Source of the DNA: Candidatus Omnitrophota bacterium
GTDB lineage: Bacteria; Omnitrophota; Gorgyraeia; Zapsychrales; JAKLDJ01
DNA length: 64,000 nucleotides
Assembly: GCA_022703585.1 (NCBI GenBank)
Contig: JAKLDJ010000002.1
Location: 219,413 to 283,412 of the forward strand
Direction: 5' to 3'
Every line of letters starts with the position of its first letter. The stretch's first letter is position 1. Position numbers and translations under genes: made by a program. Below, piece by piece: positions 17,344 through 54,445 of the stretch. Under the pieces are notes generated by a model. That model saw nothing but the letters and a program-made list of their open reading frames with translations, did not search any database and was not told the origin of the DNA.

Positions 17344-17350
17344 ACAATCC

Positions 17351-21684: not shown

Positions 21685-22149
21685 TTATTTCTTGCCTTCC
21701 GAAGTTGCCTTTATCTTTTCGATCAGCTTCACAATACCGGCAATCATGGCCTCCGGCCTGGGAGGGCATCCGGGAACATAAACATCGACAGGAATAACCT
21801 TATCTAAAGGAAGCGGGCAATTATAACTGTTAATATACATCCCCCGCGATAAGGAACATTCTCCCATGGCCACCACAAAACCGGGCTTAGGCATTTGTTC
21901 ATAAATTCTTTTAATGCGCGGGATACATTTACGAGTCACTGAGCCCGTTACTAATAAAACATCGGCATGTTTAATGCTGCCGACCAGCACCATCCCGAAT
22001 CTTTCAATATCATGACGGGGTGTCAGACAATCAATGATCTCAATGTCGCAGTTATTACAGCTTCCCGTCGACATGTGAAATACCCACAGCGATTTTAATA
22101 ATGCCTTTTGCTTTAGATTCATTTTATAAACCCTTAAAAGCCAGCACAA
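21685..22149 (-). CDS. Group-4 hydrogenase small subunit, NuoB-like with a proximal [4Fe-4S]. The start could be the ATG at 22149 or at 22122.
   Basis: It has the cysteine motifs GSCNNCDIE, GECS and GCPP of NuoB/HycG-type small subunits. Confidence 0.85.
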   Translation of the reverse strand: MCWLLRVYKMNLKQKALLKSLWVFHMSTGSCNNCDIEIIDCLTPRHDIERFGMVLVGSIKHADVLLVTGSVTRKCIPRIKRIYEQMPKPGFVVAMGECSLSRGMYINSYNCPLPLDKVIPVDVYVPGCPPRPEAMIAGIVKLIEKIKATSEGKK

Positions 22150-23622: not shown

Positions 23623-23645
23623 AATCCGATTTACCTAATCATTTT

Positions 23646-29100: not shown

Positions 29101-29104
29101 CTCG

Positions 29105-29665
29105 TTATCTCTTATAGATAAAATTATTCTCGGCCTCGTCCAGTACGGGTAACAAAGCGTCCCGCCTAGAAAGAATCGGACGCCGTACGGGCCATTTAAT
29201 CTTTATTGCCGGGTCATCCCAACGCACGCCGCGCTCGTGCTTAGGGGCGTAGGCACTCGTGCATCCGTAGAAGATCTCAGCCCCATCGGTTAGAGTACAA
29301 AACCCATGCGCAAAACCTTCAGGGATATAAATCATCTTCTTGTTGCGCGCGGAAAGATTCAACCCCACCCATTTTCCGTAAAAAGGCGATCCCTTTCTTA
29401 AATCAACCGCCACTTCGAATATTTCTCCGGCGACTGCCCGGACAATTTTTCCCTGGGCAAAAGGGCTGATTTGATAGTGCAGGCCTCGGACGACATTCTT
29501 TCTGGACTTTGAATGATTGAGCTGTACCAACGGCTTATTGATTCCTGCCTTTTTAAAATCAGGAAGTTTGTAGGCCTCCATAAAGAATCCCCGTCCATCC
29601 GGAAACACCTGCGGCTCTATCAATAAGACATCCGGAATTTTTAACCGCGTAAAACGAAACGACAT
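29105..29665 (-). CDS. rmlC: dTDP-4-dehydrorhamnose 3,5-epimerase. The ORF extends to 29683; the likely start is MSFRF at 29665.
   Basis: It has the cupin-fold RmlC motifs (DGRGFF, VRGLHYQ). Confidence 0.85.
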   Translation of the reverse strand: MSFRFTRLKIPDVLLIEPQVFPDGRGFFMEAYKLPDFKKAGINKPLVQLNHSKSRKNVVRGLHYQISPFAQGKIVRAVAGEIFEVAVDLRKGSPFYGKWVGLNLSARNKKMIYIPEGFAHGFCTLTDGAEIFYGCTSAYAPKHERGVRWDDPAIKIKWPVRRPILSRRDALLPVLDEAENNFIYKR

Positions 29666-29708
29666 ATCTGACTCCTTCAACAAGTCCCTATTTTATTACG
29701 GGTTCTTC

Positions 29709-38844: not shown

Positions 38845-39774
38845 TCAGAAAAGGCGAACGTTTATGTTTTTTTCCGTTTGCGCCGGAGATTCTTGGGGAT
38901 TTGATCTTCGCAAACCAAGGGCCCTGGCCAAGGCATCCTCGGAATCCCGCTTCTCCCCTAACTCGCCGTAAGACAATCCCAGATATTGCAAAACATCCGC
39001 CTGCCTCGGATTAATTCTTAAGGATTCCAAAAGAAAATAAACGGCTTGTCTGTATTCCTTCAATTGGTAAGCCGCAAAACCGGCATAGTAGTAGAAAAAG
39101 TCCTTGCTGTCGGGAACCGACTTGGTCGCATACAAAGCCAGATTGAGCATTTTCTGATAATCCTGCAACTTCTGATAGCTAAGCATCAATAGCCGGTAGC
39201 AACCTTCATAACCTTCCTTAATCCCGACGGCAATTGATCCATCCAAAACTTTAGCCTCCTTCATAAGCTGCCAGTAAATAAATGACGCATACAAAGATTT
39301 GGCCGTAACATCCGGAGGAATGGAAAGTGCCTGTTCCAGCGAATCAGCCGCCTTTGAATAAAACCCTTTTTTAAAATAGATCACGCCGAGATTATACTGC
39401 GGCCACAGACAGCCAGGATCCAGCACCACCGCCTTTTCATAAAAGGAAATCGCCTTTTCCTCATCGCCATAATAGTAGCAACAAAATCCCAACACGGCGA
39501 GGATATCGGCTCCGCTCCCGGCATATTCATTGACCTTTTCATAGAATTCAATGTAAGGCTCCAATATTTCAGGACGGGCTGACTCCTGCCCCTGAGAAAT
39601 CTTTACCAATTTTACCAACGGAGGTTTTAGATAGTCGAGCCGATCAGCTCTGAAATTTCTTTTGCTGATGATACTGGCAGTGCACAAAAAGGCAATAAGG
39701 TAAAGCACACCCACCCGCCTACTTAAGGAAATAATCCTTCCGGTCAGATCTTTGACTTCCAATCGTTGCCTCAT
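38845..39774 (-). CDS. TPR-repeat protein with an N-terminal TM/signal anchor.
   Basis: The 309-aa ORF has repeated TPR-like A/Y/L patterns. Confidence 0.65.
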   Translation of the reverse strand: MRQRLEVKDLTGRIISLSRRVGVLYLIAFLCTASIISKRNFRADRLDYLKPPLVKLVKISQGQESARPEILEPYIEFYEKVNEYAGSGADILAVLGFCCYYYGDEEKAISFYEKAVVLDPGCLWPQYNLGVIYFKKGFYSKAADSLEQALSIPPDVTAKSLYASFIYWQLMKEAKVLDGSIAVGIKEGYEGCYRLLMLSYQKLQDYQKMLNLALYATKSVPDSKDFFYYYAGFAAYQLKEYRQAVYFLLESLRINPRQADVLQYLGLSYGELGEKRDSEDALARALGLRRSNPQESPAQTEKNINVRLF

Positions 39775-41990
39775 TACGATTCCTTGGTTTTCATAAGCAG
39801 TTGGCTGCCGAAGAAATTCTTAAAACCCATCCATATCAAAATAATAAAAACCAGGATAAAAACACCGGCCAGGAAATAATTAACAGCATACTGCCACCAC
39901 ATTCCAAAACGCAACACAACGACACTCTCGCCCGCCGGTACCCACAACCCCTTAAAGGCATAATTCGCCCGCCATAATTTTGTTTCCTTGCCGTTAACAA
40001 ACGCCCTCCAGCCTTCGTAAAAACTGTCGTTATAGACTAGGAATTTCTTTGAATCAAAATGAGTCCTAATTTTTATAGAATTAGCGTCAAAATGCAGGAC
40101 CTTAAAATTTGGCTCGTTGCCAGAAACGGTTTCCGCCAACAGCGGCAGCTCGCCGGAACTTTTTGAATCACCCCTGCCCTCCGCTTTGTAACCGCCGGAT
40201 ACAAAGGCGGCATTTTCTATTTTAACCAGCATCTGTTCAAGGCGCTTAAAATCAAAATCGGCATCTTCCATAGGCAAGACACGGTCATAAATAATGAATT
40301 TATGACAAACATATTCCTTGAGAACATTTTGATTAACGCTTTCGCTTAAGAAATACCCCCGTGTCGTTCCCCGGTAGATATTTTTCCCCCCTTCTTTCTT
40401 GGCCTCAACGCCCGAGGAATCACGCATAAAAGCAATACTTTTGTCGACGTCAGATTCTTCTTCTATTTTTGGCCGGCTGAAGGAAAAATGGGTATTAAAA
40501 ATAAACCTGCCCTGTGAAGACGTATCTGCCGGTTGTTCGTCATCAACATTCACTTTTGAAAATATTTCAATCGGCTGCAGGACCGTGACTGCAAATAGAA
40601 TGAAAGCCCAAACCCACGGCCGCAACGGTCTTTTACTTATGCAATAGAAACAAAAAGAAAAAAAGCTAAGAAAAACAGTAAGGTAGGCTGCGCTGACAGT
40701 ATTTTTTTGCCAGTAAAGAATAGCGGCAAACACTAGGTGCATAAAGAACAGAAATCCTAAAAGCGGATATTTCTTTAGCCCCGCCCCCGATAAGCGACCC
40801 ATAAACAAACGAAAGTTCTCGGCGCAGAATAAAACAAAGACCGGGACAAGAACCATCCAGGCAAAGAAATGTAAGTTCCTAAAATATTTGAAATAGACAA
40901 CGTGCTCGTAGAGAAACTTGTGCACGCCCGTCAGATTGCCCAGAATAATTAAAAGGACACAAAAACCGGCAGAAAAAATCACCATTAATTTCTTGCTGAG
41001 GAAATTCCCTATAGAAATCCACAGCAAAAGATAAGAAAAGATCGGAACGTAGAAAAGATTGATTTCTTTTCTACGGATACCGCCGAGCAAATGTTCAAGG
41101 TCAATCCACCCGCCGACACCGCTGGCAGCAATAGCCTTTAAGGCAACCGCTCCCGCAGGCTGACCCACAGGGTGCCCGGAGGCATAATATTCTCCCGCGG
41201 TCGTCGATTGGTACCATAAAAATCCCGGGACAAAAGCGAGAACCGCCAGAAGAAAACATGACCCGGCAAAGACTTTGTGGGATTTAAAGAAAACAAGGCA
41301 TTGACCAAGAAAGGAAACCGCATCCCGGAAGAAAAAAACGCCCAGACAAATCGTCAGAATCAAGAATATCGTCAGAAAATAAAAAGGGACATAGGTGATC
41401 GCAATCAGCATCACCGAGAACGTCATACCTAAAAAGAAAAGCTTGTTACGCTCCTGGGCAAAGGCGAACAGAAAATAAAAAAACCACACGGTAGGGACAA
41501 AAAGCAGAATAACAATAGGGCTGGAGAAAAGGATCCTCCCTAAGATGGAGAATGCCAACAAGACAAAGGCCAAGTAGGCCGCCATTTTATCGCGGGTCAA
41601 GCGTTTGACCAGCAAGTAAAAACCGGCCAACCCTAAAAAGTAATAGGCGACCATAAAGATAAAATAGGACAGCGTTACCGACAGGCCTAATGATTTTAAA
41701 AGAGGGATAGCATAAAAAAACGGGTTAAATTCCCCGATAGTCCGTAAATGCAGCAGATTCGGCCTGCCCCAGGCAAAAAAAGGATTCCACATCGGGTAAA
41801 CACCGTGAACAATATTGTGAATATAAAAATTGATATACTGATAGGCATTCCATGCGTCACGGTTAAGCATGGCCTGGTCATAAAGAAAGGCGCGGAAAAG
41901 ATAGACCCATAGAATGACCGGAGGGAAAAACAAAAAGAAGTTTTTAATAAAAACATTACCTCTGCTCTCTTTTTTCAACACACTGAACAT
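39774..41990 (-). CDS. Large polytopic membrane protein, GT-C-like (YfhO/ArnT-like) putative glycosyltransferase.
   Basis: A 738-aa protein with at least 12 TM helices and a soluble C-terminal domain of about 250 aa. Confidence 0.5.
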   Translation of the reverse strand: MFSVLKKESRGNVFIKNFFLFFPPVILWVYLFRAFLYDQAMLNRDAWNAYQYINFYIHNIVHGVYPMWNPFFAWGRPNLLHLRTIGEFNPFFYAIPLLKSLGLSVTLSYFIFMVAYYFLGLAGFYLLVKRLTRDKMAAYLAFVLLAFSILGRILFSSPIVILLFVPTVWFFYFLFAFAQERNKLFFLGMTFSVMLIAITYVPFYFLTIFLILTICLGVFFFRDAVSFLGQCLVFFKSHKVFAGSCFLLAVLAFVPGFLWYQSTTAGEYYASGHPVGQPAGAVALKAIAASGVGGWIDLEHLLGGIRRKEINLFYVPIFSYLLLWISIGNFLSKKLMVIFSAGFCVLLIILGNLTGVHKFLYEHVVYFKYFRNLHFFAWMVLVPVFVLFCAENFRLFMGRLSGAGLKKYPLLGFLFFMHLVFAAILYWQKNTVSAAYLTVFLSFFSFCFYCISKRPLRPWVWAFILFAVTVLQPIEIFSKVNVDDEQPADTSSQGRFIFNTHFSFSRPKIEEESDVDKSIAFMRDSSGVEAKKEGGKNIYRGTTRGYFLSESVNQNVLKEYVCHKFIIYDRVLPMEDADFDFKRLEQMLVKIENAAFVSGGYKAEGRGDSKSSGELPLLAETVSGNEPNFKVLHFDANSIKIRTHFDSKKFLVYNDSFYEGWRAFVNGKETKLWRANYAFKGLWVPAGESVVVLRFGMWWQYAVNYFLAGVFILVFIILIWMGFKNFFGSQLLMKTKES

Positions 41991-42022
41991 TTTCTAACTA
42001 TCTCCGATAAAAAAAGAAATTT

Positions 42023-42823
42023 TCAAGACCCGTAACATTTTAGAGCGTAAGCCACTTCTTCTTCCAGAGAAGACCCCTTCAAAAGAAATTCCAAAGAAAG
42101 CCAACCCTTATAATTGATTTGCCGTAACGCCTGCGCAAAACTTAAATGATCCACGCCCTTGTAGCCCGGCGCGCATAAATGGGGATCATTGATATGCATA
42201 TGCCCGAGGATATCCGCATGCCTTACAATCATGTCCGGACAAGATTCCTTATTCATGGTCATGCTGCCCGTGTCTAAAAGCAATTTAAAATGAGGATGAT
42301 TGACCAATTGGACTAGCCTGGCCCCCTCGTCGGCAGTATTAACAAAATCACAATCGTACTCGCCTGACAGCGGTTCGATACAAATCGAGATCCCCGCTTC
42401 TTTACATTCCTGGGCTATTTTATAGAAGAATGTAGCGGCAGAAGAAAGCGCCTCGTCAAAAGACAGGTTTCCTTTTTTGCGGTTCTTTCCCGCCCCGAAT
42501 ACCAGAATCGTCCCGCCGATGCCATTGCATAATTCAATCAAGTTTTTGATGTGCCATTCCAGCATTTCCCGGGTCGACGAACCGCCAAAAAGCTGCAATT
42601 CCGGATGATTGTAGACTAAGGACTGAAAGCCGATGGCCGTGATCCCGCGGTCAGCCAGAATCTTCTTAACATCCTCTCTCTCCTTCTTGGGGACCCGGGG
42701 GGAATTCTTCCAGAGCAGCGTGGGGGCAATTTCGATTCCCTTAATCGGCAAAGGCTTAATAATATCCAGCGCCTTTAAAAAAGAATGCCCCCCAAGGGCG
42801 ATGTTAGAGATTCCTATATTCAT
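42023..42823 (-). CDS. Sugar phosphate isomerase/epimerase (xylose-isomerase-like TIM barrel).
   Basis: A 266-aa protein of the AP endonuclease 2 / TIM-barrel family with metal ligands (HMHINDPH). Confidence 0.7.
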   Translation of the reverse strand: MNIGISNIALGGHSFLKALDIIKPLPIKGIEIAPTLLWKNSPRVPKKEREDVKKILADRGITAIGFQSLVYNHPELQLFGGSSTREMLEWHIKNLIELCNGIGGTILVFGAGKNRKKGNLSFDEALSSAATFFYKIAQECKEAGISICIEPLSGEYDCDFVNTADEGARLVQLVNHPHFKLLLDTGSMTMNKESCPDMIVRHADILGHMHINDPHLCAPGYKGVDHLSFAQALRQINYKGWLSLEFLLKGSSLEEEVAYALKCYGS

Positions 42824-42857
42824 AAAGGTCGCAGGGTGAGAAAATCTTTGGGACTGT

Positions 42858-43808
42858 TTAGTTACAGCGTAAAATGTTTTTTATGTTTCTTTTGCGATGA
42901 AGTCTTTCTTCCTGGTGGCGCGCAAAAAAGTTGTCGGCAATTCTTTTAAAGATCGCCAGTTCAAGGCCGATGAATATCATGACTACCCCGATCGTCATAT
43001 AGGAGTGCCGAAATGCAGTTTCTTGGATACCAAAAATCAAGAACGCCATAAAAACAAAAGCAACACCCGCACTGAGAAGCAGTAACCCCATCATCCCCAG
43101 GTAATACGCCCTCTCGCGGCTAAAGGTCACGGAAAAGAAAACGATAATGAGATCATCAATAGCCCTTTGAAGCCTTCCTAAGAAATTATATTTTGAAATA
43201 CCGCGAAAACGGGGCCGGTGCACAACCGGAATCTCGGTTACCCTAAAACCGTTACGATGAGCAAAGGCTGCGGCAAAACGGTACAAGTCACCGTAAAGCG
43301 CCAGATATTGGATAACATTCATCCGGAAACACTTTAAGCCCGAAAAATAATCTTCAAATTTTAAACCTGTAATCAAACGCATAAGCCAATTAAAAAGCCG
43401 CGAGGTAAGAATCGTCCGTTTTTCATCTTGGCGATTCACACGCTTACCCGAGACCACATCAAACCCCTCATCCATTTTCTTAACCAGCTTCGGGACATCC
43501 TCGGGATCATGCTGTAAATCACTATCAATCACAACAACGTATTGCCCCTTGACCAGTTCAAATCCCTGTTCCAGGGCAAGGGCCTTGCCCATTTTCTTAA
43601 AGAAATTAATCACGGTAATATTGCTGTTGTTGCGCTGAATTTCTTCCAGGACTTTCTCGCTATCGTCGGTAGAGCCGTCATTGACGAAAACAATCTGAAA
43701 ACTCCGCCCAAATTCAGAAAGCGCCTTATTGAGCCTCTGAAACAAAGGCATTAAATTGCCTTCCTCGTTATGAGCCGGAATAACCACGGAAATATCATAT
43801 TCTTTCAT
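42858..43808 (-). CDS. Family-2 glycosyltransferase, polyprenyl-phosphate sugar transferase type (ArnC/GtrB/DPM1-like) with C-terminal TM helices.
   Basis: VVIPAHNEE...VNDGSTDDS and a DSD DxD motif, followed by two C-terminal TM segments. Confidence 0.8.
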   Translation of the reverse strand: MKEYDISVVIPAHNEEGNLMPLFQRLNKALSEFGRSFQIVFVNDGSTDDSEKVLEEIQRNNSNITVINFFKKMGKALALEQGFELVKGQYVVVIDSDLQHDPEDVPKLVKKMDEGFDVVSGKRVNRQDEKRTILTSRLFNWLMRLITGLKFEDYFSGLKCFRMNVIQYLALYGDLYRFAAAFAHRNGFRVTEIPVVHRPRFRGISKYNFLGRLQRAIDDLIIVFFSVTFSRERAYYLGMMGLLLLSAGVAFVFMAFLIFGIQETAFRHSYMTIGVVMIFIGLELAIFKRIADNFFARHQEERLHRKRNIKNILRCN

Positions 43809-43879
43809 GGAGCCCCCTTAGATTTTTTCAAATATGTCTTTACGCTACATTTATTATTGTAAGAAATATGCCAATAAAC

Positions 43880-45235
43880 TCAAACGAAAAGTTTCTTTAG
43901 AAAACCAATCATGCGCCGTAGCGAGAATAATTTTATCGCCTTTAACGGCGAGCGCAAATAGTACGCCAGGTAAAAATTGGCCTGATAACGGACAAGTTGT
44001 TCCTGTGTAAAATTGGGGTGGCCCAACGCCGTGCCTGCCTGCTTGCCATAAGCCGTCCAATCGCCGGTTTTAAGGCTAAAGCCGTTTTGATTCTTGCGCG
44101 CCATCTCGTAAATCTGCGTCCCCGGAAACGGCGTTAAAATCGCAAAGTTAACGCTAGAGCAATACCGTCGCATCTTGAGGGCAAACTTCTTTGTCTTTAA
44201 AAGGCTCTCCTTGGTCTCAAATGGAAGCCCAAGAATAAAATTAAGCTCAATATTCGTTATGCCGACTTCTTTGCAGATTTTTAGCACCTTTTCGGCCATC
44301 TCCGGCGTGGTCCCTTTGCCGCACAATTCCAGGATTTTAGGATCCGCGGATTCTATCCCCAAGCTTAGCTCGTCACAGCCGCTTTCTTTCATCGCCCTGA
44401 CCAAATCTTCGTCGATGGTGTTAACCCGGGTGCTGGCAATCCAGCGGATATTTAATTTTTCTTTAATAAACCTCTGGCAAAATTCCATCGCATGCGGCTT
44501 TGACAGCGGAAACGTTCCGGCCTTAAGATCAAACCTTTTAAAACCGTAGTTGTCCATGCCATAGCGGATCTCTTCGATAATCCTTTGAGGGCTTTTATAG
44601 CGGACATCCCGACCCAGCGTTCGAAAACAAAAAACACATTCAAAGGGACAACCCCGCAAGGGCTCAACCGGAACGACAGAATACTTTTTTAAGTCATATA
44701 AATCCCACGCCGGAAAAGGCAATGTGTTTAAATCCTCAAAATCCTTGCGCGGCGGATTAACAGAAATATCTCCCTCGGCGCTTCTGTAGGCGAGGCCGTT
44801 GATATCTTTAAGGGCTTTGCCTTGAACAATGCTCCGAAGGGTCGACTCCCCTTCGCCTACGCACACAATATCAAACGACGGAAATTGCTTGAGGGTCTCA
44901 TGGGGAAGGGCGGTCACATGTTGTCCGCCGACGATGGTAACGATATGCGGGTTATTTTTCTTAACCTCTTCCGCTATCTTGGCGGCATCAATAATTTCTT
45001 CCGTATATGCCGGAAGAGCCAGGTATCCGGGGTTGGTTTTACGAATCTCCTCGACTAACTGTTCCAGCGTCATTTTTTCCGCTTGAGGATCAAGAATAGA
45101 AACGTCCAGGCCTTCCTTCCGCAGGACCGCGGCAAGGATAGCGATTCCGGCCCGTAAATGCGGTTCGGTATGCTGAACATAATCTTTCCGCTGGGAAATA
45201 AAAGCGCTGTTAAGCAGGACGAATTTTCCAGGCAT
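43880..45235 (-). CDS. B12-binding radical SAM enzyme (class B rSAM). The ORF extends to 45271; the likely start is MPGKFVLLN at 45235.
   Basis: It has an N-terminal cobalamin-binding Rossmann domain and a CPFECVFC radical SAM motif. Confidence 0.8.
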   Translation of the reverse strand: MPGKFVLLNSAFISQRKDYVQHTEPHLRAGIAILAAVLRKEGLDVSILDPQAEKMTLEQLVEEIRKTNPGYLALPAYTEEIIDAAKIAEEVKKNNPHIVTIVGGQHVTALPHETLKQFPSFDIVCVGEGESTLRSIVQGKALKDINGLAYRSAEGDISVNPPRKDFEDLNTLPFPAWDLYDLKKYSVVPVEPLRGCPFECVFCFRTLGRDVRYKSPQRIIEEIRYGMDNYGFKRFDLKAGTFPLSKPHAMEFCQRFIKEKLNIRWIASTRVNTIDEDLVRAMKESGCDELSLGIESADPKILELCGKGTTPEMAEKVLKICKEVGITNIELNFILGLPFETKESLLKTKKFALKMRRYCSSVNFAILTPFPGTQIYEMARKNQNGFSLKTGDWTAYGKQAGTALGHPNFTQEQLVRYQANFYLAYYLRSPLKAIKLFSLRRMIGFLKKLFV

Positions 45236-45248
45236 GGTATTGCACCGG

Positions 45249-45968
45249 CTAAGTTTTTTCGTAAACACCAAAAATGGTTATTCCAAAGGGAATCGGGAAA
45301 TTATTTCTGATAAAAAACGTTTCCAATCGGCAAACCGCGTAAAGGATCGCGTTGATAAAACGCGGCAACGGAGCGTAGACAAGCCGCGACCCTTTTTTGT
45401 TAAATAATTTTGCGCCGGCAATCGGCAGAAAAAGAAAGAACATCCAGTATCCCAGCCGACGGCATTGCATAACCGAAAGAATATTCTTAACTAGTCCCTT
45501 GCTATAGCGCCTCACATGGCCGTAAAACCGGTCGTGGGCACTATACAGCCAAGGCAAAGCCGGAACCGTAAACAAAAAAATCCCGCCGGGTTTTAAGACA
45601 CGGCGGATTTCCCGTACCGCCAGAGCATGATCTTCGATGTATTCTAAAACATCGAATGCCGTAACAATATCAAAGTATCCGTCGGGATAATCGATCGCAC
45701 AGGCGCTCGACACCTTTTTCTCGTAACAGGCATTTGGGCTTAAGGACTCAACGGCCTTCGCCTCGCTATCGATCGCAAAAACTTTTCCATAAGTCTGCAT
45801 TAACGCCAGATCATCACCCGTGCCTACGCCGATGTTTAATATTTTCCGTTGGGCGGGAATATCCTCTTTCCCGGATACCCGATCGAACAGTATCCGTATC
45901 AGATCCAGCTTACTCTTATACCAGAAATAATCTTTCGAGAGGCCGGCGGCCGGGGCGCGTAAGTCCAT
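45249..45968 (-). CDS. Class I SAM-dependent methyltransferase.
   Basis: ILNIGVGTGDD (motif I) is present in a 239-aa ORF. Confidence 0.75.
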   Translation of the reverse strand: MDLRAPAAGLSKDYFWYKSKLDLIRILFDRVSGKEDIPAQRKILNIGVGTGDDLALMQTYGKVFAIDSEAKAVESLSPNACYEKKVSSACAIDYPDGYFDIVTAFDVLEYIEDHALAVREIRRVLKPGGIFLFTVPALPWLYSAHDRFYGHVRRYSKGLVKNILSVMQCRRLGYWMFFLFLPIAGAKLFNKKGSRLVYAPLPRFINAILYAVCRLETFFIRNNFPIPFGITIFGVYEKT

Positions 45969-45993
45969 AATCTTTCCCTGGGAGAAATTTTCC

Positions 45994-47112
45994 TTAAAAA
46001 GCCTTTTTCAAAGTACCGGTAATATACGCGATTTGAGATGATGTCATTTCAGGATATACAGGTAACGATAAAATCTTTTCGCTGGCGGATTCGGTCTCCG
46101 GAAATGCGCCTTTTGAATAACCCAATTGGGCGTATCCCTTTTGAAGATAAAACGGAATAGGATAATGGATTCCTGCTTGAATACCGTTTTTGGATAAAAA
46201 TTCGATTACCTTTGATCGGCGATCAACCTGGACAACAAACAGATGAAAAACATGGGTCTCGGGATTTACAATGTCGGGGAGCTTAAGAATGCCTTTCTTT
46301 TCCAGCGGTTTTAACTCTTGAGAATATTTCTTTGCGATCTCCCAGCGCTTAAGATTCCACTGATCCAGATATTTGAGCTTAACGTTTAAAACTGCGGCCT
46401 GGATACTGTCGAGCCTGGAGTTTATTCCCCGTTGGGGGTATTCATATTTCTTTTCGGAACCGAAATTGCGCATGCTGCGGATTTTCTTTGCCAACTTTTC
46501 CGAGGAAGCCGACATCGCCCCGCCGTCGCCGTAAGCCCCCAAATTCTTCCCGGGATAAAAACTGAAACATCCGAATTGCCCAAAAGTGCCGACGCGTTTC
46601 TTTTTCCAGCGCGCTCCCGCGGCCTGGGCAACGTCTTCGACGATAAAAAGCGAATGCTTTTGGGCAATTTTTGCAATAACATCCATATTACAAGCACGCC
46701 CGTACAAATGAACGGGACAAATCGCTTTAGTGCGGGACGTAATCGCGGATTCGATTTTCTTTAAATCAATTAAATACGTTTCCGGGTCCATATCGACTAA
46801 GACCGGACGCGCGCCCGTCTCCATAACCCCGACCGCCGTTGCCACAAAGGTATTAGCCGGAATGATCACCTCGTCATTGACTCCTAATCCCAGGGCAGCA
46901 AAGGCTAAATGAAGCGCGTCGGTCGCATTCGCAACGCCAACAACGTAATCGGCCTCCAGAAATTCCGCAAAAGACCGCTCAAACTCTTCCACCTGCGGCC
47001 CCAAAATAAAAGAAGCCGAGGCGCAAACCTCGGCAATATTTTTATCAATCTCTTTCTTAAGTTTTTGATACTGAATCTTAAGATCCACCAAGGGAATATT
47101 CATTTCAAGCAA
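45994..47112 (-). CDS. DegT/DnrJ/EryC1/StrS-family PLP-dependent sugar aminotransferase.
   Basis: The 372-aa ORF matches the family along its length. From memory it resembles ArnB and WecE. Confidence 0.85.
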   Translation of the reverse strand: MLEMNIPLVDLKIQYQKLKKEIDKNIAEVCASASFILGPQVEEFERSFAEFLEADYVVGVANATDALHLAFAALGLGVNDEVIIPANTFVATAVGVMETGARPVLVDMDPETYLIDLKKIESAITSRTKAICPVHLYGRACNMDVIAKIAQKHSLFIVEDVAQAAGARWKKKRVGTFGQFGCFSFYPGKNLGAYGDGGAMSASSEKLAKKIRSMRNFGSEKKYEYPQRGINSRLDSIQAAVLNVKLKYLDQWNLKRWEIAKKYSQELKPLEKKGILKLPDIVNPETHVFHLFVVQVDRRSKVIEFLSKNGIQAGIHYPIPFYLQKGYAQLGYSKGAFPETESASEKILSLPVYPEMTSSQIAYITGTLKKAF

Positions 47113-47114
47113 CC

Positions 47115-48284
47115 TCAGATAGGTAGGTCATGAGCTGCATTATAAGCACTATTAATTTCCAGCGCCAATCGGTTACAGCGGGCATGGGCCTTAAAACAAC
47201 GGTCACAATTGAAATCCGACCCTTGAGAACTAATAAGCAGCCGCTCAAATTCTTTGCGGTTATCCGGAATGGCCCCTAACTTACCGAATAGAAATGACGG
47301 CGTAGCAATACTCGAGCAGCGATACATGTTGCCGTCAGCAGCCAGTGTCGTCTGGTAATACGTGTAGACGCAATGCCTGTAATTCATCCGGTCGACGTCT
47401 TGATTGAAAGGCGGAAAGTAAAAAATGTAAGGTTTATCGTCGGGGCTATGAGAGTAAAACTTCTTTAGGCGCTGTTCATAAACAAGATTCTGCGGGATTT
47501 CCACTTTTTGTTTATAGTCGCGCACCCGGGCAAACGGTTTTCCGTATTGGTCGTAAGGAATGGAAAAACGCAGGGAATCAACCCCCAACTCTTTGGCGAT
47601 TCTTACCATGCGCGCAATTTCCTCCTCGGAAGAATTAACCGAATTCATCAAATAACAGATCCTGACCGCCGGCCGCTGAGGATTCTTCTTTTGAAGAGCA
47701 CACGCCATCGCGATCCCTTCGATGATCGTGTCGAAGTGATTGACTTTAAGATTCTTCGTCTTCATGTGGCTTTCGGGCGTTCCGGCATCGAGACTGACCG
47801 AAAGATAATCTTTCTTATCCATCAGCATAAAAAGTTCGGTCAGAAAGCCTTTTTCCTCTTCGAGATTCTTAAGCCGTGAGCCGTTGGTATGGATACCAAA
47901 ACTTACTTTAAGTCTTTTTGTCACCCGAAGAAAATCCATCAGGTAAGGATTTAAAAGCGGTTCCGTATAGGCACCTCCGAAGATATGGTACTCGCACTTG
48001 GCGGGGCCGATATCTTCCAAAAGCCTTAAAACCTTTGGTTCGTCCATCCCTAAGGGGCGTTTAAGAAGCCCTCCCTGGCAATAATAACAGTCAAAATCAC
48101 ACGGACGTTTGTGGTCACCGGGCAGGTGGATCTCAAGCTGACGGGGATAGACGACCTTACCGGCAAAGACCTTGCTAAAGTCTCCGCCCAAGAAGTCTTT
48201 AAGGATCTTGAGGTAATCGTAATTGTCAGGCCGCTGGGGCAAGCCGTCGATTAAAGGTAAGGCAACGGATTCTTCGGAAGCCAT
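47115..48284 (-). CDS. Radical SAM protein, possibly with a C-terminal SPASM/twitch-like Cys cluster.
   Basis: It has a CDFDCYYCQG motif and C-terminal CDRCFKAHARC. A good RBS (AAAAAAGGAAGATATG) precedes the start. Confidence 0.75.
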   Translation of the reverse strand: MASEESVALPLIDGLPQRPDNYDYLKILKDFLGGDFSKVFAGKVVYPRQLEIHLPGDHKRPCDFDCYYCQGGLLKRPLGMDEPKVLRLLEDIGPAKCEYHIFGGAYTEPLLNPYLMDFLRVTKRLKVSFGIHTNGSRLKNLEEEKGFLTELFMLMDKKDYLSVSLDAGTPESHMKTKNLKVNHFDTIIEGIAMACALQKKNPQRPAVRICYLMNSVNSSEEEIARMVRIAKELGVDSLRFSIPYDQYGKPFARVRDYKQKVEIPQNLVYEQRLKKFYSHSPDDKPYIFYFPPFNQDVDRMNYRHCVYTYYQTTLAADGNMYRCSSIATPSFLFGKLGAIPDNRKEFERLLISSQGSDFNCDRCFKAHARCNRLALEINSAYNAAHDLPI

Positions 48285-48369
48285 ATCTTCCTTTTTTGGC
48301 CAGGATAACAGTTTCTTCCTGAGTGATCTCTCCCAGCCATATTATTAAATTTATTTAAAATAGTAGGGT

Positions 48370-48398
48370 ATTTTAACTCGGAAAATCCCCAACGACAA
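48370..48398 (-). promoter_or_regulatory. Putative sigma70 promoter (TTGTCG, 17 nt spacer, TAAAAT) for the rSAM/DegT/MTase/GT2 operon.
   Basis: The reverse complement reads ttgtcgttggggattttccgagttaaaat, about 85 nt upstream of the 48284 start. Confidence 0.4.
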
Positions 48399-48433
48399 GA
48401 TAAAAAATAGCTTCAATAGGATTTTGGGGAAAA

Positions 48434-48467
48434 GGGCGGCAGGATTGCTTTGGCAATCCTGCCGCCC
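48434..48467 (-). terminator. Rho-independent terminator of hcp.
   Basis: A 15-bp perfect stem (gggcggcaggattgc tttg gcaatcctgccgccc) followed on the minus strand by TTTTCCCCAAAAT. Confidence 0.7.
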
Positions 48468-48506
48468 TTCCCACCTTTTATTATACTAATATTAATTTAA
48501 ATACTA

Positions 48507-48731
48507 CTTTTTATTATCAGTCTTCGTATTCGTAAGCTCTCCGCGGCTGGTGTTGATGAATAGCATCTGTTGCTTCATCTGGGCAATAGCCTCTTTACCA
48601 ATCACAAGATAAGTCCCTGGCATCACTGAAATACGCAACCCGACGATCTCGTTTTGGATAAGATCCTCCATGCCGATCTTCTTAAAAACCTTAGGATCTA
48701 CCGTCCTGCCAAGGCCTCTCTCAAATCTTCG
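48507..48731 (-). pseudogene. Remnant of a D-isomer-specific 2-hydroxyacid dehydrogenase gene (NAD-binding-domain fragment).
   Basis: The minus-strand frame reads ...DPKVFKKIGMEDLIQNEIVGLRISVMPGTYLVIGKEAIAQMKQQMLFINTSRGELTNTKTDNKK*. It contains the family's LIxKExxxxMKxxxxLINTxRG signature, lacks both its N- and C-terminal parts, and overlaps the hcp stop codon. Confidence 0.55.
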
Positions 48732-50872: not shown

Positions 50873-51550
50873 CTAAACGCCTCTGAAGAATTTTCGGTAA
50901 TACAAGTACACGGTAAGATTTAAAGAAAGCATCGCGTAGGAATAAAAGAAATCCTCCAGGGGTATCGTTAAGACTCTCACCCCCCATACTGCGGCAGGAT
51001 TGTAGACAACAACCGGCAGGGCCGTCAGGATATAATTAACAATCAAAAAGGGCACGTAGCCCGCGAGTATAAAAAGCCAATACCGCGAAGAGTTCAACAG
51101 CCCCGGAAGAAACCAAAGAGTTAACAACATGGCTGCTCCGCAAAACATAAGGACCGTAAAAGTGTATGCCCTTTCCTGATTAAAGAAAGCAAGGGCAAGA
51201 AATCCCATCGCCCATACCAAAAATACAGCCCTTGGAATTCTGAAACCGCCTTCCTTAATATAAAGCGCGATAACCTCATAAATAAAAATACAACTAAACG
51301 GCACCACCACAAAAAACAGCACCTCTTCAAGCGGAAGCCCGAAAAAGTTCATACCCAGCACATACCGGGCATTAAAACCCCAATCTCCCCGCGCAGTCGC
51401 CATAACATCCCAGACAATAAAAACCGTCCCCACCGATAGAATCGATAAGAATAATTCCGGAAAACGCCTATAATATCCAATTTTCTTTTTAAAGCTGAAA
51501 AGAAAAGGAAAAATAATAACCAAAAAATCAATCCACAAGTAAGTGCTCAT
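50873..51550 (-). CDS. Lycopene cyclase domain protein (fused CrtYcd-type).
   Basis: The 225-aa polytopic protein has two PLEE-containing repeats, characteristic of heterodimeric-type lycopene cyclases. Confidence 0.7.
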   Translation of the reverse strand: MSTYLWIDFLVIIFPFLFSFKKKIGYYRRFPELFLSILSVGTVFIVWDVMATARGDWGFNARYVLGMNFFGLPLEEVLFFVVVPFSCIFIYEVIALYIKEGGFRIPRAVFLVWAMGFLALAFFNQERAYTFTVLMFCGAAMLLTLWFLPGLLNSSRYWLFILAGYVPFLIVNYILTALPVVVYNPAAVWGVRVLTIPLEDFFYSYAMLSLNLTVYLYYRKFFRGV

Positions 51551-52134
51551 TTTTCCAATAATTCCTTCCGGAGATTGCCCAGAGAACTTCGCTGCTGTTT
51601 TGTTAGCTTTCCGTTTCTTAGCAAAAATTCAATCATTTCTAACTGGGTCTTTAGATCAACTCTTGCATAATCTTTACGAACCAGTGACAAATAAAGAGCA
51701 TTTACATCCTGAAGCCGTTTCTCTCCCACCCCAAAAAAAGGCGGCAGATGAGACAGGGTTGCGAACCGGACAAAACGTACTTCTAAGTCATCAGGATCTT
51801 TGTCGACGGCTTTATCGAGTAATTTTAAAGCCAGAGAAAGGCCGCTTACTTTTTGGGCAGGATTGAAAGAAAATTTGGCTTCAAGCCCTTTGGTCGCTCC
51901 GTAATAGGAAAGCACAATCGCCGGATACTCCTCGGAATCAGCAGGTAATCTAGTCTCGATTAATTTTAGGAGCGCTTTTGTATTTTTTTTACCCTTCTGA
52001 GCCTCCCGAAACTCTTTGCGAAGATATTCCCTGGTTATCGCTACGGATTCCGCTTCGAGTGCTTCTAAGTCCGCCGTCCAACAGGCTATAATAATCGAGA
52101 AAAGAGCAATAAAGAAATAGCGGGAATTTCGCAT
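51547..52134 (-). CDS. Hypothetical secreted protein embedded in the carotenoid operon.
   Basis: The 195-aa ORF has an N-terminal signal peptide (MRNSRYFFIALFSIIIACWTA). Both ends overlap neighbouring genes by 4 nt. Confidence 0.5.
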   Translation of the reverse strand: MRNSRYFFIALFSIIIACWTADLEALEAESVAITREYLRKEFREAQKGKKNTKALLKLIETRLPADSEEYPAIVLSYYGATKGLEAKFSFNPAQKVSGLSLALKLLDKAVDKDPDDLEVRFVRFATLSHLPPFFGVGEKRLQDVNALYLSLVRKDYARVDLKTQLEMIEFLLRNGKLTKQQRSSLGNLRKELLEK

Positions 52135-52137
52135 AAT

Positions 52138-52992
52138 CTAAAACCTGCTACCGAAGAACGTAACAATAAAATAGGCTCTTATTAAAAGCAGTAATTTATG
52201 AAAATCACAAATGCGGACTCGTTTTGATAATAAAAACGCAGCATCAAGATTCTTAATTTTTCTAAAGAGCGCGTTGTAATAAAGATATACCGAATATACC
52301 GCCAGGACATAGCTCCTGGGAATCTTTCTTATGCCGTCCAGCGCTACTTTAAATTCCTCCTCAACCTCGGCCTCCATTCGTTTCTTGGCCGCCTCGTTAA
52401 TATCTTCCTTATTCCTGATTCCCGGTAGATAAATCCGCCCGCGCGCCTCCAGGTCGTTTTTTATATCACGCAAAAAGTTGACCTTTTGAAAAGCCGACCC
52501 CAATTTCCTGGCAGGAACAACCAGCTCCTTAAATAACGGTTCATTCCCGGCGCAAAAAACCTTCAGGCACATGAGCCCGATAACTTCCGCGGAGCCATAA
52601 ACATACCTGTCATAAGAATTCTTATCATGGAATTTAAGCGTCAGGTCCATTTCCATGCTGGCAAGAAATGCGTCAATATACTCGCCATCGATCTTATATT
52701 TCTTAACCACATCCTGAAAGACCTCCAAAACCGGATTAGTCGAAACGCCAGCGCGAATAGCCCCATTAACATCTTTCTTGAATTGCTCCAACAAAATCTT
52801 TTTATCGCAACTTTGAAACGTATCCACAATCTCATCCGCCACGCGAACAAATCCGTATATACCGTAGATGGCATCCTGCGCCTCTTTGGGGAAAACCTTG
52901 ATCCCCAAACTAAAAGAAGTGCTGTAACGGTTCGTCATCAGCCGGCTGACCTCGTAACAGGTCTTAAGATAAAGATCCATGGTCATGGACAA
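52138..52992 (-). CDS. crtB: Phytoene/squalene (4,4'-diapophytoene) synthase.
   Basis: The 284-aa ORF has the YCYxVAGTVG-like region (IYGIYGFVRVADEIVD) and the trans-IPP head-to-head synthase fold. Confidence 0.8.
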   Translation of the reverse strand: MSMTMDLYLKTCYEVSRLMTNRYSTSFSLGIKVFPKEAQDAIYGIYGFVRVADEIVDTFQSCDKKILLEQFKKDVNGAIRAGVSTNPVLEVFQDVVKKYKIDGEYIDAFLASMEMDLTLKFHDKNSYDRYVYGSAEVIGLMCLKVFCAGNEPLFKELVVPARKLGSAFQKVNFLRDIKNDLEARGRIYLPGIRNKEDINEAAKKRMEAEVEEEFKVALDGIRKIPRSYVLAVYSVYLYYNALFRKIKNLDAAFLLSKRVRICDFHKLLLLIRAYFIVTFFGSRF

Positions 52993-54445
52993 TCCTCTCT
53001 AAAACAAGTTTGGAGCCGACAATCACCATCGGCAGTCCGGTTCCCGGCACGGTCGAGGCGCCGACGTAATAAAAGTTTTTTAACTTCTCGTCTTTGTTGG
53101 AGGGCCTTAGGTATCCGATTTGGGTCATTCCGTGGCAAAGGCCTAATCCCGATCCCCGATAGAGATTAAACATTATTCCCCAGTCTTGGGGTGTTAAAAT
53201 CTTCTTGACTAATGTATTTTTTGCGACATCGAAACCAATCCTTTTCGACAAATCACCAACGATATTATCCGCTAAATCTTCCTTGTCGAACCAATCTTTC
53301 TTAAAACGCAGATCCGGCACCGGACAAAGAATCAAAATACTCTCGCAACCCTCCGGGGCATATTCGGGATAAGCCTTTGTCGCCACATTAACATAATAAT
53401 ACGGCCTTTGCGGCGCCATCGCGGAAACAAAAACATTTTTGGCATACCCCTTAAAATTGCTCCCCAGGAAATAATTGTGTTGCATCGCATTATCGATTTT
53501 CCCCTTAACGCCTAAGTAAATCGTAAAAGGCGCCAGGCTCCATTGCATTTTATCCAGGCGCTTTTGACTGAACGCCGGTCTTTGTAAAACTTCTCCGCGA
53601 AAAGATGCCGCGTCGGCATTCGAGATAAAGATATCCGCCGGCCAGCGGCGGCCGGTTTGATCTTCCAGCTCGACGGCATTATTGTCTCTTATGTGAACCT
53701 TCTTTACCTCTGATTCAAAAACAAAATCAACGCCCTTGCTTTTGAGAGTATTAACCAGCGCCTCGACAATCCTATACATTCCCCCTTGCACCCCCCAATA
53801 ACCGTTGTGGCGGAATTCGACATAATTTAGAAGGGAATAAATCGCCGGTGTTCGAAAGGGTGTAGCCCCCAAAAAGAAAGAAACTAAAGAAAAGATGACC
53901 CGTAGCTCCTGGGACGAGAAATTTCTTTCGACCTCTTGCCACATATTCCTGAAAAGATACGGCAGATGTTTAACCGGAACGCTGGCAAGTTTGCCGAGAT
54001 AATCCAGGGGCCCGTAAAAATTAGTTTTGATCACCTTGGTGTCGGTGTCATGAAAAAGCTGCTGGCCCTTGCGTAGATATCTTTCAACCTTCCGCGCGAC
54101 ATCCGGCTCGATATCGGCAAACTCTTTTTCCAGTTTGAAAAGGTCTTTGTGAATTTTGTATGGCCTGCTGCGGCCTTCAAAAAATACCTGATATAGCGGA
54201 TCAAGCTCTCGAAGACCGATGGGATTGGCGATACCGCAACTTTTAAAAAGCTCCTCCAGCTCATAGCTCATACTCATAAATGACGGGCCGATATCGAATT
54301 TAAACCCGTCCAAGACAAGCTGGTTGAGCCGGCCGCCGGGGGTTTTATTCTTTTCTAAAACCGTAACCTTGCACCCCATTGCCGAAAGCCTTAGGGCTGT
54401 CGCCAGGCCACCCAAACCCGAACCGATGATAACAACCTTTTTCAT
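52964..54445 (-). CDS. crtI: Phytoene (or diapophytoene) desaturase, FAD-dependent.
   Basis: It has the N-terminal VVIIGSGLGGLATALRLSAMG dinucleotide-binding motif. The 493-aa ORF matches the CrtI/CrtN family along its length. Confidence 0.8.
   Translation of the reverse strand: MKKVVIIGSGLGGLATALRLSAMGCKVTVLEKNKTPGGRLNQLVLDGFKFDIGPSFMSMSYELEELFKSCGIANPIGLRELDPLYQVFFEGRSRPYKIHKDLFKLEKEFADIEPDVARKVERYLRKGQQLFHDTDTKVIKTNFYGPLDYLGKLASVPVKHLPYLFRNMWQEVERNFSSQELRVIFSLVSFFLGATPFRTPAIYSLLNYVEFRHNGYWGVQGGMYRIVEALVNTLKSKGVDFVFESEVKKVHIRDNNAVELEDQTGRRWPADIFISNADAASFRGEVLQRPAFSQKRLDKMQWSLAPFTIYLGVKGKIDNAMQHNYFLGSNFKGYAKNVFVSAMAPQRPYYYVNVATKAYPEYAPEGCESILILCPVPDLRFKKDWFDKEDLADNIVGDLSKRIGFDVAKNTLVKKILTPQDWGIMFNLYRGSGLGLCHGMTQIGYLRPSNKDEKLKNFYYVGASTVPGTGLPMVIVGSKLVLERIVHDHGSLS

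Follow-up and report, generated by a model that had tools for sequence, protein, structure and literature searches.

An operon-like radical SAM and glycosyltransferase cassette in an Omnitrophota genome, with a putative role in making a lipid-carried amino sugar for the cell envelope

The locus described here lies on contig JAKLDJ010000002.1 of the metagenome-assembled genome of an uncultured Candidatus Omnitrophota bacterium (assembly GCA_022703585.1), in a stretch of 64,000 nucleotides that was analysed as a whole and is called the window below. Positions 38845-48284 of the window carry eight consecutive open reading frames (ORFs) on the minus strand (Table 1), encoding a radical S-adenosylmethionine (SAM) protein that we call rSAM1, a DegT-family aminotransferase, a methyltransferase, a second, B12-binding radical SAM enzyme, a family 2 glycosyltransferase (GT2), a TIM barrel protein, a GT-C-type membrane protein and a tetratricopeptide repeat (TPR) protein. 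A first-pass annotation, made from the sequence alone, had listed the same eight genes; every ORF was found at the coordinates that it gave, and its list of domains agrees with the Pfam and NCBIfam matches. Public gene calls place two starts slightly differently, that of DegT at 47103 and that of the B12 enzyme at 45235, the latter 12 codons inside a long ORF with a TTG start. We infer, step by step and with somewhat better than even confidence in the overall scheme, that the eight genes together make a tailored amino sugar, load it on a lipid carrier and place it on the cell envelope; our confidence in any specific chemical step is lower than in the scheme itself.

Table 1. Genes and features of the cassette, followed by the carotenoid-like gene set (window coordinates)
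Feature	Position	Strand	Domain match or remark
rSAM1, radical SAM protein	47115..48284	-	PF04055 51 bits
DegT/DnrJ/EryC1 pyridoxal phosphate (PLP) sugar aminotransferase	45994..47103 (ORF to 47112)	-	PF01041 396.6 bits, residues 18-368 of 372
Class I SAM-dependent methyltransferase	45249..45968	-	Methyltransf_11 67 bits
B12-binding (class B) radical SAM enzyme	43880..45235 (ORF to 45271)	-	PF02310 85 bits, PF04055 92 bits
GT2 polyprenyl-phosphate glycosyltransferase, ArnC/GtrB/PgfS type	42858..43808	-	PF00535 114 bits
Xylose-isomerase-like TIM barrel (AP_endonuc_2)	42023..42823	-	PF01261 95.6 bits
GT-C membrane protein, 738 residues, many transmembrane segments	39774..41990	-	YfhO PF09586 23.3 bits, cutoff 28.5
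Membrane-anchored TPR protein	38845..39774	-	TPR_2 69 bits
Intergenic 413 bp upstream of rSAM1, putative promoter region	48285..48697	.	Sole long gap on the 5' side
Phytoene-desaturase-like amine oxidase	52964-54445	-	
Squalene/phytoene synthase	52138-52992	-	
Unannotated 195-aa protein	51547-52134	-	
Lycopene-cyclase-domain protein	50873-51550	-	

The genes are tightly packed. With the public starts, the gaps computed from the coordinates are, from rSAM1 to the TPR gene, 11, 25, 13, 71, 34, 32 and -1 bp, the largest lying between the B12 enzyme and GT2 and the last reflecting a 1-bp overlap of the TPR start with the GT-C stop; on the outside, the cassette is set off from its neighbours by 413 bp on the upstream side and 209 bp on the downstream side. 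These neighbours are unrelated, with a hybrid-cluster protein and an Rrf2 regulator upstream and two response regulators and pyruvate kinase downstream. The same eight genes in identical order occur on a metagenomic contig (locus L027), where the products are 69% (rSAM1), 62% (DegT), 54% (methyltransferase), 61% (B12 enzyme), 61% (GT2), 44% (TIM barrel), 38% (GT-C) and 26% (TPR) identical to those of the window. The flanks there are different ones, HypF/C/D/E and IlvD on one side and MetH on the other. Since gaps of no more than 71 bp on a single strand are combined with the same order between unrelated flanks, the eight genes are, to judge from this comparison, one co-conserved, operon-like glycan-modification unit. 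Co-conservation was the test that the first-pass annotation had set for its own proposal, and the order kept in L027 despite the unrelated flanks speaks for it.

Consensus scans for transcription signals were less informative. One sigma-70-like match (48398-48370, minus strand) falls inside the 413-bp upstream region, which is the likely promoter region of the cassette; promoter-like matches showed no excess over shuffled sequence (18 against 15.8 ± 3.9), and terminator-like matches were only some 2 standard deviations above it (22 against 14.6 ± 3.8); neither kind of match is informative on transcript ends.

rSAM1 carries the CxxxCxxC motif at C62/C66/C69. It matches only the general radical SAM model in Pfam, and no NCBIfam model comes near its cutoff, nor is a DesII model among the NCBIfam matches. 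A sequence search of solved structures in the PDB gave no match, and a profile of the family gave only marginal ones, to AbmM (E 0.013) and BlsE (E 0.022). When 30 homologues drawn from many phyla, none of them less than 51% identical to the window protein, are aligned, 74 columns are invariant, among them four C-terminal cysteines (C305, C323, C363 and C370) that would probably be enough for one auxiliary Fe-S cluster. A 'SPASM-like' cysteine tail had been read from the sequence at first pass, and the four invariant residues bear out the tail; the SPASM assignment fares less well, with no SPASM match in Pfam. NCBIfam models of SPASM families match rSAM1 only weakly (ScmF 22.6 against a cutoff of 400, StsB 20.3 against 625, spiro-SPASM 16.1 against 250) and their alignments cover the radical SAM core (residues 47-242) and leave out the tail. 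The tail does not look like a canonical SPASM domain.

A structural model of rSAM1 was obtained with AlphaFold2 on the family alignment (mean predicted local distance difference test score, pLDDT, 86.6). Foldseek placed DesII first (8hzv, E 4e-13, TM-score 0.62) and BlsE second (7vob, E 3.6e-12), with SuiB, MoaA, viperin, anSME, EpeE and SpeY, and also PqqE, among the lower-ranked matches; of these, SuiB, anSME, SpeY and PqqE are SPASM or twitch enzymes. DesII and BlsE both work on nucleotide- or nucleoside-linked sugars. DesII abstracts the hydrogen at C3' of a TDP-sugar; its TDP-3-keto products arise by deamination or, with TDP-quinovose as substrate, by dehydrogenation, and TDP-fucose is partly dehydrated (PMC11434129). 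Because the neighbours of rSAM1 are glycan genes in every phylum sampled and its best fold matches are DesII and BlsE, the enzyme is predicted to act on sugars. Fold and nucleotide-sugar context together support the view that rSAM1 may work like DesII, as distinct from being a member of the DesII family.

The rSAM1 family is rare and patchy in its distribution, with 23 loci among 185,579 species genomes. The hits come from Omnitrophota, Dehalococcoidia and other Chloroflexota, Pelagibacteraceae, Elusimicrobia, WOR-3, Dependentiae, Nitrospinaceae, Acidobacteria, Parcubacteria and one Bathyarchaeia archaeon. A metagenome scan confirmed 286 relatives among the matched stretches, from which 80 loci were taken for comparison, and a further 16 loci (L112-L127) lie on IMG/VR contigs classified as viral. 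A homologue of the Gfo/Idh/MocA oxidoreductases is present within the stretch on 14 of these 16, mostly directly or a few kb downstream. Such copies could reflect phage-borne remodelling of host surface glycans, prophages or misclassified host DNA; radical SAM cassettes inside host-recognition clusters are mentioned in a study of pelagimyophages (PMC7029224). No description of the family was found in the curated family libraries, and none of the family or of the eight-gene module in the literature searched, coverage of the latter being incomplete.

The eight window proteins and proteins of the sister loci were compared with all loci by tblastn, and the recurrent neighbour of rSAM1 was identified by Pfam. 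A Gfo/Idh/MocA oxidoreductase (Gfo below) immediately follows rSAM1 in 81 of the 90 loci that offer at least 900 bp downstream, the window itself being excluded, and lies slightly farther off in five of the eight loci without an adjacent copy (L017, L023, L024, L041 and L082). DegT follows rSAM1 directly in only one of those 90 loci, L027, besides the window, which contains no Gfo homologue. The usual partner of rSAM1 had been overlooked at first pass, and the present locus is a rare variant in which Gfo is absent and DegT directly follows rSAM1.

Further downstream the loci vary. Where at least 3 kb is available (62 loci), an ArnC-like GT2 is found in 35, the TIM barrel in 21, an asparagine-synthase-like gene in 16 and a B12-radical SAM gene in 7. 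The asparagine-synthase-like gene is typical of marine contigs, in an arrangement as in the two Pelagibacteraceae genomes (L003, L010). The rSAM1-Gfo pair adjoins a Wzx flippase, a different GT2, a methyltransferase and a GT4 in a Dehalococcoidia genome (L007), in which tblastn found no ArnC-like GT2; it stands beside a Wzx-type flippase and GT2 genes in Parcubacteria (L002), and is followed by a Methyltransf_24 gene in WOR-3 (L013). A third variant (L035, 259-6712) has DegT (64% identical) and the methyltransferase (55%) beside a Wzm/Wzt ABC exporter and, at the GT-C position, a 707-aa protein that has an F5/8 type C domain at its C-terminal end. From these comparisons the ancestral core appears to be rSAM1-Gfo, usually with GT2 and often with the TIM barrel. 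As the pair serves Wzx-type as well as GtrB-type clusters, its substrate would most simply be a nucleotide sugar.

A close Gfo-bearing counterpart of the window cassette has the order rSAM1 - Gfo - LPG_synthase_TM - B12 enzyme - GT2 - TIM barrel - GT-C - TPR (L032); in another (L006) the gene content is unchanged and GT-C and TPR lie upstream. Thus the window and L027 carry DegT and the methyltransferase where L032 and L006 carry Gfo and LPG_synthase_TM. The shared genes of the two loci are overall 30-69% identical to those of the window (rSAM1 65-69%, B12 enzyme 61-62%, GT2 44-58%). The LPG_synthase_TM gene (PF03706), which lies between Gfo and either the B12 enzyme or GT2 (L005 12191-13183, L006 12082-13065, L032 11257-12231), may encode the flippase that the window variant lacks.

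Since an NAD(P) oxidoreductase and a PLP aminotransferase alternate right after the same radical SAM enzyme, the exchange suggests that rSAM1 makes a keto sugar, possibly a deoxy-keto sugar, which undergoes amination in this cassette and reduction in the others. There are precedents for both arrangements: AprD4 and AprD3, a radical SAM dehydratase with a nicotinamide-dependent reductase, are an established deoxygenation pair (PMC5461906), and BtrN, an alcohol dehydrogenase of the radical SAM type that has an auxiliary cluster, feeds a transamination (PMC2996862). We mildly favour elimination to a deoxy-keto sugar over dehydrogenation, because there would be no obvious need for a radical enzyme if the sugar were simply oxidised and then reduced.

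The aminotransferase fits such a product. Its scores against solved structures are 371 bits for 7b0d, 330 for QdtB, 321 for 2oga, which we take to be DesV, 265 for WbpE and about 170 for ArnB; the top match is named 'glutamine-scyllo-inositol transaminase', and NtdA is also among the matches. On this showing the enzyme is closer to the C3-aminotransferases QdtB, DesV and WbpE than to the C4 enzyme ArnB, an affinity that would suit a DesII-type 3-keto product. The earlier description as an ArnB-like DegT protein is therefore right as to family (Table 1) and not as to subtype: ArnB scores well below the 265-330 bits of the C3-aminotransferases, and the ArnB model of NCBIfam (PRK11658) reaches 223 bits against a cutoff of 631.

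The methyltransferase is less readily placed. No NCBIfam model is near its cutoff, there is no informative subfamily match, and a hydropathy scan found no transmembrane helix. Copies 54-55% identical stand beside DegT in L027 and L035. The protein may N- or O-methylate the sugar, methylation of the new amine being possible and not required. For the TIM barrel, the best NCBIfam scores are below cutoff (IolO 85 bits, psicose 3-epimerase 60 bits), no equivalog model reaching it, and the solved structure matched is TM0416 (E 1.5e-15). Aligned with TM0416 and with D-psicose and D-tagatose 3-epimerases, it keeps the IEPL, LDT and GHxH segments and the conserved-Glu segment (LSLEF in the window), which presumably make up the Glu-Asp-His-Glu metal site. 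A Pfam score above cutoff together with these segments identifies the protein as of the xylose-isomerase-like ketose 3-epimerase type. It appears related to metal-dependent keto-sugar epimerases and isomerases, and epimerisation or isomerisation next to a keto group is a plausible role.

The second radical SAM enzyme has both domains of its class, the B12-binding domain at residues 41-148 and the radical SAM domain at residues 203-364, and on this basis is a genuine cobalamin-type class B protein. Its best NCBIfam scores are with HpnJ (202 bits over nearly the full length, cutoff 578), ApyD (179) and BchE (172), followed at a distance by the methylase models, which are all far below cutoff, among them PhpK (98, cutoff 600), HpnR (95, cutoff 650) and KedN5 (86, cutoff 700). 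Among solved structures AprD4 is closest (6fd2, E 6e-24) and TokK matches at E 5e-7; the AprD4-family model of NCBIfam gives 93 bits against a cutoff of 500. Orthologues 60-62% identical lie directly upstream of GT2 in L027, L032 and L006, and homologues in Hydrogenedentes and Patescibacteria are likewise found within glycan clusters. Besides methylases, the cobalamin radical SAM enzymes comprise members that contract rings and others that carry out cyclisation (PMC9204698). The enzyme looks like an optional accessory whose possible chemistries include rearrangement, dehydration and C-methylation. Its class was thus correctly named at first pass; the C-methylation suggested there is neither supported nor excluded, the best matches being the non-methylases HpnJ and BchE, both far below cutoff.

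The lipid-carrier leg begins with GT2. Its closest solved relatives are ArnC (135-139 bits; 9hwj, 139 bits, residues 6-285) and the GtrB protein sll0501 (120 bits, residues 5-301), and NCBIfam gives 148 bits for ArnC (NF007986, cutoff 529) and 126 bits for PgfS, both below cutoff. Two C-terminal transmembrane helices are predicted (residues 243-261 and 269-287). We take it from these matches to be a polyprenyl-phosphate glycosyltransferase of the ArnC/GtrB type and not an ArnC equivalog; the ArnC/GtrB-like GT2 with C-terminal helices of the first-pass annotation is borne out.

For the GT-C protein, a sequence search of solved structures gave no match. Foldseek with its AlphaFold2 model (pLDDT 82.9) returned GT-C enzymes as all of its top matches, namely STT3 (E 1e-4), EmbB/C, AglB, ALG12 and DPY19. 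A nearly invariant aspartate, D45, falls between the model helices H33-36 and H44-61, in keeping with the acidic residue that GT-C enzymes conserve in their first loop outside the cytoplasm, and a beta-rich C-terminal domain is inserted between the transmembrane bundle and the last transmembrane helix. Of its 31 homologues, labelled mainly Omnitrophota or Omnitrophica where named, 23 have a Pfam YfhO hit of E<1e-3 (2.3e-8 for the best) and some are named as YfhO family by NCBI. The protein is a GT-C superfamily member by fold and looks like a distant YfhO relative, its own YfhO score being below cutoff. The first-pass placing of a GT-C enzyme in the transfer position ('ArnT/YfhO position') is supported, but the protein is not ArnT.

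The TPR protein has an N-terminal hydrophobic anchor (residues 14-32), and its gene lies downstream of GT-C in L027, L032, L006 and L004. Three GT-C homologues of 1049-1137 aa (P0139, P0143 and P0145) carry a C-terminal TPR extension; residues 14-306 of the window protein align with residues 777-1074 of P0145 (33% identity, E 1e-52), and an alignment with P0139 was also found. The fusions imply that the TPR protein is a dedicated partner of GT-C. In the fused proteins two transmembrane helices separate the C-terminal domain of GT-C from the TPR domain, an arrangement that probably puts the TPR domain outside the cytoplasm, as in TPR-bearing GT-C protein mannosyltransferases. As to the acceptor, a surface polysaccharide is hinted at by the Wzm/Wzt genes beside the L035 cassette, and a protein or scaffold by the TPR domain.

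Taken together, the following pathway may be proposed. rSAM1, with its one probable auxiliary Fe-S cluster, would abstract a hydrogen atom from a hexose in activated form, most likely one bound to a nucleotide, giving a keto sugar by dehydrogenation or, as in DesII and AprD4, a deoxy-keto sugar by elimination of a neighbouring group. The TIM barrel would epimerise or isomerise the sugar beside the keto group, DegT would convert the ketone to an amine (in most related loci Gfo would reduce it instead), the methyltransferase would N- or O-methylate the sugar and the B12 enzyme would add one further radical modification. GT2 would then load the completed sugar onto polyprenyl phosphate on the inner side of the membrane and, after flipping, the YfhO-like GT-C protein with its membrane-anchored TPR partner would pass it to an extracytoplasmic acceptor, either a surface polysaccharide or a protein.

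Several observations weigh against this scheme. The fold match of rSAM1 with DesII is moderate, at the TM-score given above and 15% identity, and the sequence similarity of rSAM1 to solved enzymes is insignificant. DesII deaminates after a first aminotransferase while the cassette has only one, making the analogy inexact, and no nucleotidyltransferase or 4,6-dehydratase is encoded inside the cassette. Relatives of the methyltransferase, 30-33% identical, are found directly upstream of rSAM1 in three Gfo-type loci (L014, L100 and L110), which argues against a strictly N-methylating role. The Foldseek TM-scores for GT-C are around 0.3, and its YfhO match in Pfam, below cutoff, covers the C-terminal part only. 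No flippase candidate is present in the window variant, the cassette encoding neither GtrA (PF04138) nor any other small membrane protein. Finally, Gfo/Idh/MocA proteins can be the oxidising partner, as in the WbpB/GnnA type, so that the exchange with DegT is not strict proof of a ketone made by rSAM1.

The alternative that survives best, though we think it unlikely, places the tailoring on the lipid: GT2 would first load a common sugar such as GlcNAc or Glc, which rSAM1, DegT, the methyltransferase, the B12 enzyme and the TIM barrel would then remodel, and the B12 enzyme might contract the ring to a carbocyclic pseudo-sugar. Modification at this level is known for ArnD on Und-P-Ara4FN and for HpnK and HpnJ on hopanoid-linked glucosamine. 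HpnJ, the best family match of the B12 enzyme, has been proposed as the ring-contracting enzyme for bacteriohopanetetrol glucosamine, an amino sugar carried on a lipid (PMC9204698). Its nearly full-length alignment would suit this alternative, as would the adjacency of the B12 enzyme, GT2 and TIM barrel genes in the window, L027, L032 and L006 and the lack of nucleotide-sugar activation genes in the cassette. The HpnJ score is, however, far under its cutoff, and no transmembrane helix is predicted in any of the tailoring enzymes. The occurrence of rSAM1-Gfo in the Wzx-type cluster of L007, where GT2 is not of the ArnC-like kind by tblastn, points instead to a soluble nucleotide sugar, and the closest solved relatives of DegT all use NDP-sugars or sugar phosphates.

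It is also quite unlikely that rSAM1 produces no ketone at all, being an epimerase or an enzyme that forms or breaks a C-C bond, with the redox step falling to Gfo elsewhere and to another enzyme here and the exchange of the two genes being coincidental. Such a reading can call on the structural neighbours of rSAM1, which include the epimerase EpeE, the decarboxylase BlsE, MoaA and viperin. Sugar 3-dehydrogenases of the Gfo/Idh/MocA family pair with DegT aminotransferases in WbpB/WbpE, GnnA/GnnB and NtdC/NtdA, and both WbpE and NtdA are among the DegT matches. The window DegT, however, has no dehydrogenase partner except rSAM1, yet the cassette is intact in L027; DegT needs a source of ketone, and rSAM1 is the only redox-capable candidate besides the B12 enzyme.

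Highly improbable, in our judgement, is a chance juxtaposition of two unrelated modules, an aminocyclitol- or aminoglycoside-like set (48284-43880) and an ordinary GtrB/YfhO-type set (43808-38845). The widest internal gap, 71 bp, does fall at the boundary between them, and an inositol connection is hinted at by the name of the top DegT match and the resemblance of the TIM barrel to Iol enzymes. On the other hand, rSAM1 co-occurs with GT2 (35 of 62 loci) and with the TIM barrel (21 of 62) across phyla even where DegT, the methyltransferase and the B12 enzyme are missing, the order of the eight genes is kept in L027 and, with the Gfo exchange, in L032, and no inositol or 2-deoxy-scyllo-inosose synthase was found by Pfam or NCBIfam in the cassette or its neighbours. 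That both radical SAM genes encode housekeeping enzymes, for the maturation of tRNA or cofactors, and adjoin glycosylation genes by accident, as the automatic names of some homologues might imply ('wyosine synthetase' and 'MoaA/NifB/PqqE family' for rSAM1, 'BchE' and 'YgiQ' for the B12 enzyme), we reject as having next to no probability, given housekeeping NCBIfam models far below their cutoffs, an occurrence in so few of the species genomes and glycan-biosynthesis genes around all cellular loci with annotated neighbours; the first-pass annotation, which had raised this possibility against itself, is upheld.

Comparison with known systems helps to place the proposed pathway. Like the Arn pathway, the cassette would proceed from an aminotransferase through loading on undecaprenyl phosphate by a GT2, whose closest solved relative is ArnC, to a GT-C enzyme. 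Unlike it, the aminotransferase is nearer the C3 enzymes and the GT-C protein is YfhO-like, not ArnT; searches with Pfam and NCBIfam among the eight products and their neighbours found no equivalents of ArnA, ArnD or ArnE/F, and no formyltransferase/decarboxylase, deformylase, EamA-type flippase, ArnT or PMT-type match. Of the 'Arn-like' logic proposed at first pass, the ArnC/GtrB-like GT2 and the GT-C enzyme therefore remain, with the ArnB and ArnC models under cutoff and ArnT, ArnA, ArnD and ArnE/F missing.

Closer parallels are the Gtr/YfhO systems, GtrA/GtrB/GtrC of O-antigen, CsbB/GtcA/YfhO of teichoic acids and PgfS/PgfM of streptococci, which share a GT2 with a transmembrane tail and a YfhO-related GT-C enzyme. 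The cassette differs from them in having no GtrA/GtcA-type flippase, in a donor that would not be a common UDP-hexose, in the four tailoring enzymes (two of them radical SAM) and TIM barrel built into it, and in the dedicated TPR partner of GT-C, fused to it in some homologues.

The tailoring half recalls a different set of pathways. In TDP-desosamine synthesis by DesI, DesII, DesV and DesVI, DesV aminates the 3-keto product of DesII and DesVI then acts as the methyltransferase; the cassette similarly has a radical SAM enzyme matching DesII, an aminotransferase scoring with DesV and then a SAM methyltransferase. The differences are that rSAM1 has no sequence kinship to DesII and has its four invariant C-terminal cysteines, that a DesI-type first aminotransferase and a 4,6-dehydratase are missing, that the methyltransferase has no specific match to sugar N,N-dimethyltransferases and that the product would go to a lipid carrier and not to a macrolide. 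AprD4 and AprD3, the radical SAM diol dehydratase and NADPH reductase of apramycin C3' deoxygenation, resemble the rSAM1-oxidoreductase pairing of the 81 loci, but rSAM1 is not AprD4 kin by sequence and the window has an aminotransferase in the place of the reductase. The HpnI/HpnK/HpnJ pathway of the hopanoid cyclitol ether also sets a cobalamin-type radical SAM enzyme, the non-methylase HpnJ, beside a glycosyltransferase and an amino sugar; the B12 enzyme is nonetheless below the HpnJ cutoff, and no hopanoid genes are linked to the cassette. A likeness to aminoglycoside tailoring had been remarked on at first pass, and it is apt, extending to deoxysugars, with the rSAM1 model nearest DesII and BlsE and the B12 enzyme nearest AprD4. 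The most fitting description of the cassette is a glycosylation system of the GtrB/YfhO type, with a donor that would be made within the operon by radical chemistry in the style of the deoxysugar antibiotics.

The rmlC and rmlD genes (28255-29683), put forward at first pass as the source of a 6-deoxyhexose scaffold, are real, but the link lacks support and we discard it: they lie about 9 kb from the cassette, behind pyruvate kinase, deaminases, an ADP-forming acyl-CoA synthetase and others, and are absent from the flanks of the L027 cassette. An unlinked supply of a dTDP-sugar may nevertheless operate.

The remainder of the window holds some further features. Just upstream of the hybrid-cluster protein and Rrf2 genes lies a carotenoid-like set on the minus strand (50873-54445; Table 1), unexpected in the genome of an anaerobic member of the Omnitrophota. 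A functional link of the cassette to these genes, or to the downstream response regulators, was considered and rejected, neither being kept beside the L027 cassette. Regions 14959-25494 and 2406-7221 encode a membrane-bound group-4-type [NiFe] hydrogenase/Mrp-like complex (Complex1 49, 30 and 20 kDa subunits, NADHdh, MbhD/E, MnhE and Proton_antipo_M), near which lie HypD, HypE and HypF genes and a large pyruvate:ferredoxin oxidoreductase gene (8324-11914). In L027 Hyp genes stand directly upstream of the cassette, which suggests rearranged synteny. A second small radical SAM protein of 298 aa is encoded beside a HypE-like gene (1467-2363, minus strand); it is unrelated to rSAM1, with about 21% identity over 216 residues only. 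Two adjacent ORFs with TTG starts, 60888-62441 (517 aa) and 62475-63974 (499 aa), have no Pfam match at E<1e-5. AT skew is strongly positive (0.16-0.25) at 14001-20000 and 40001-42000 against about 0 elsewhere in the window; both stretches coincide with minus-strand genes for multi-span membrane proteins (hydrogenase/antiporter subunits and GT-C), and codons rich in Phe, Leu and Ile are the likely cause.

A wider reading may be offered, tentatively and with more doubt than belief. rSAM1 would found a new, widespread family of nucleotide-sugar radical SAM enzymes, with members from SAR11 and the candidate phyla radiation to Bathyarchaeia and contigs classified as viral, providing an unrecognised route to keto or deoxy-keto surface sugars, which the Omnitrophota would have diverted to a methylated 3-amino sugar remodelled by the B12 enzyme, an envelope sugar as yet undescribed. 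As part of the same reading, the HpnJ/AprD4-like B12 enzyme would carry out this remodelling, perhaps by contracting the ring or introducing a C-branch while the sugar is on the lipid carrier.

The module couples GtrB/YfhO-type glycosylation to a radical SAM chemistry of sugars that is otherwise familiar from antibiotic biosynthesis (DesII, AprD4), and the alternation of aminotransferase and reductase after rSAM1 predicts a keto sugar as the product of rSAM1. Surface glycans govern recognition by phages, predators and hosts, and the biology of Omnitrophota and SAR11 is known almost solely from genomes. A function for rSAM1 would cover a strongly conserved family that has no curated model, and would account for a gene pair that recurs in the surface-glycan islands of marine SAR11 and on virus-classified contigs. 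Novel deoxy or amino sugars could come to light, together with a way of making them that needs no oxygen.

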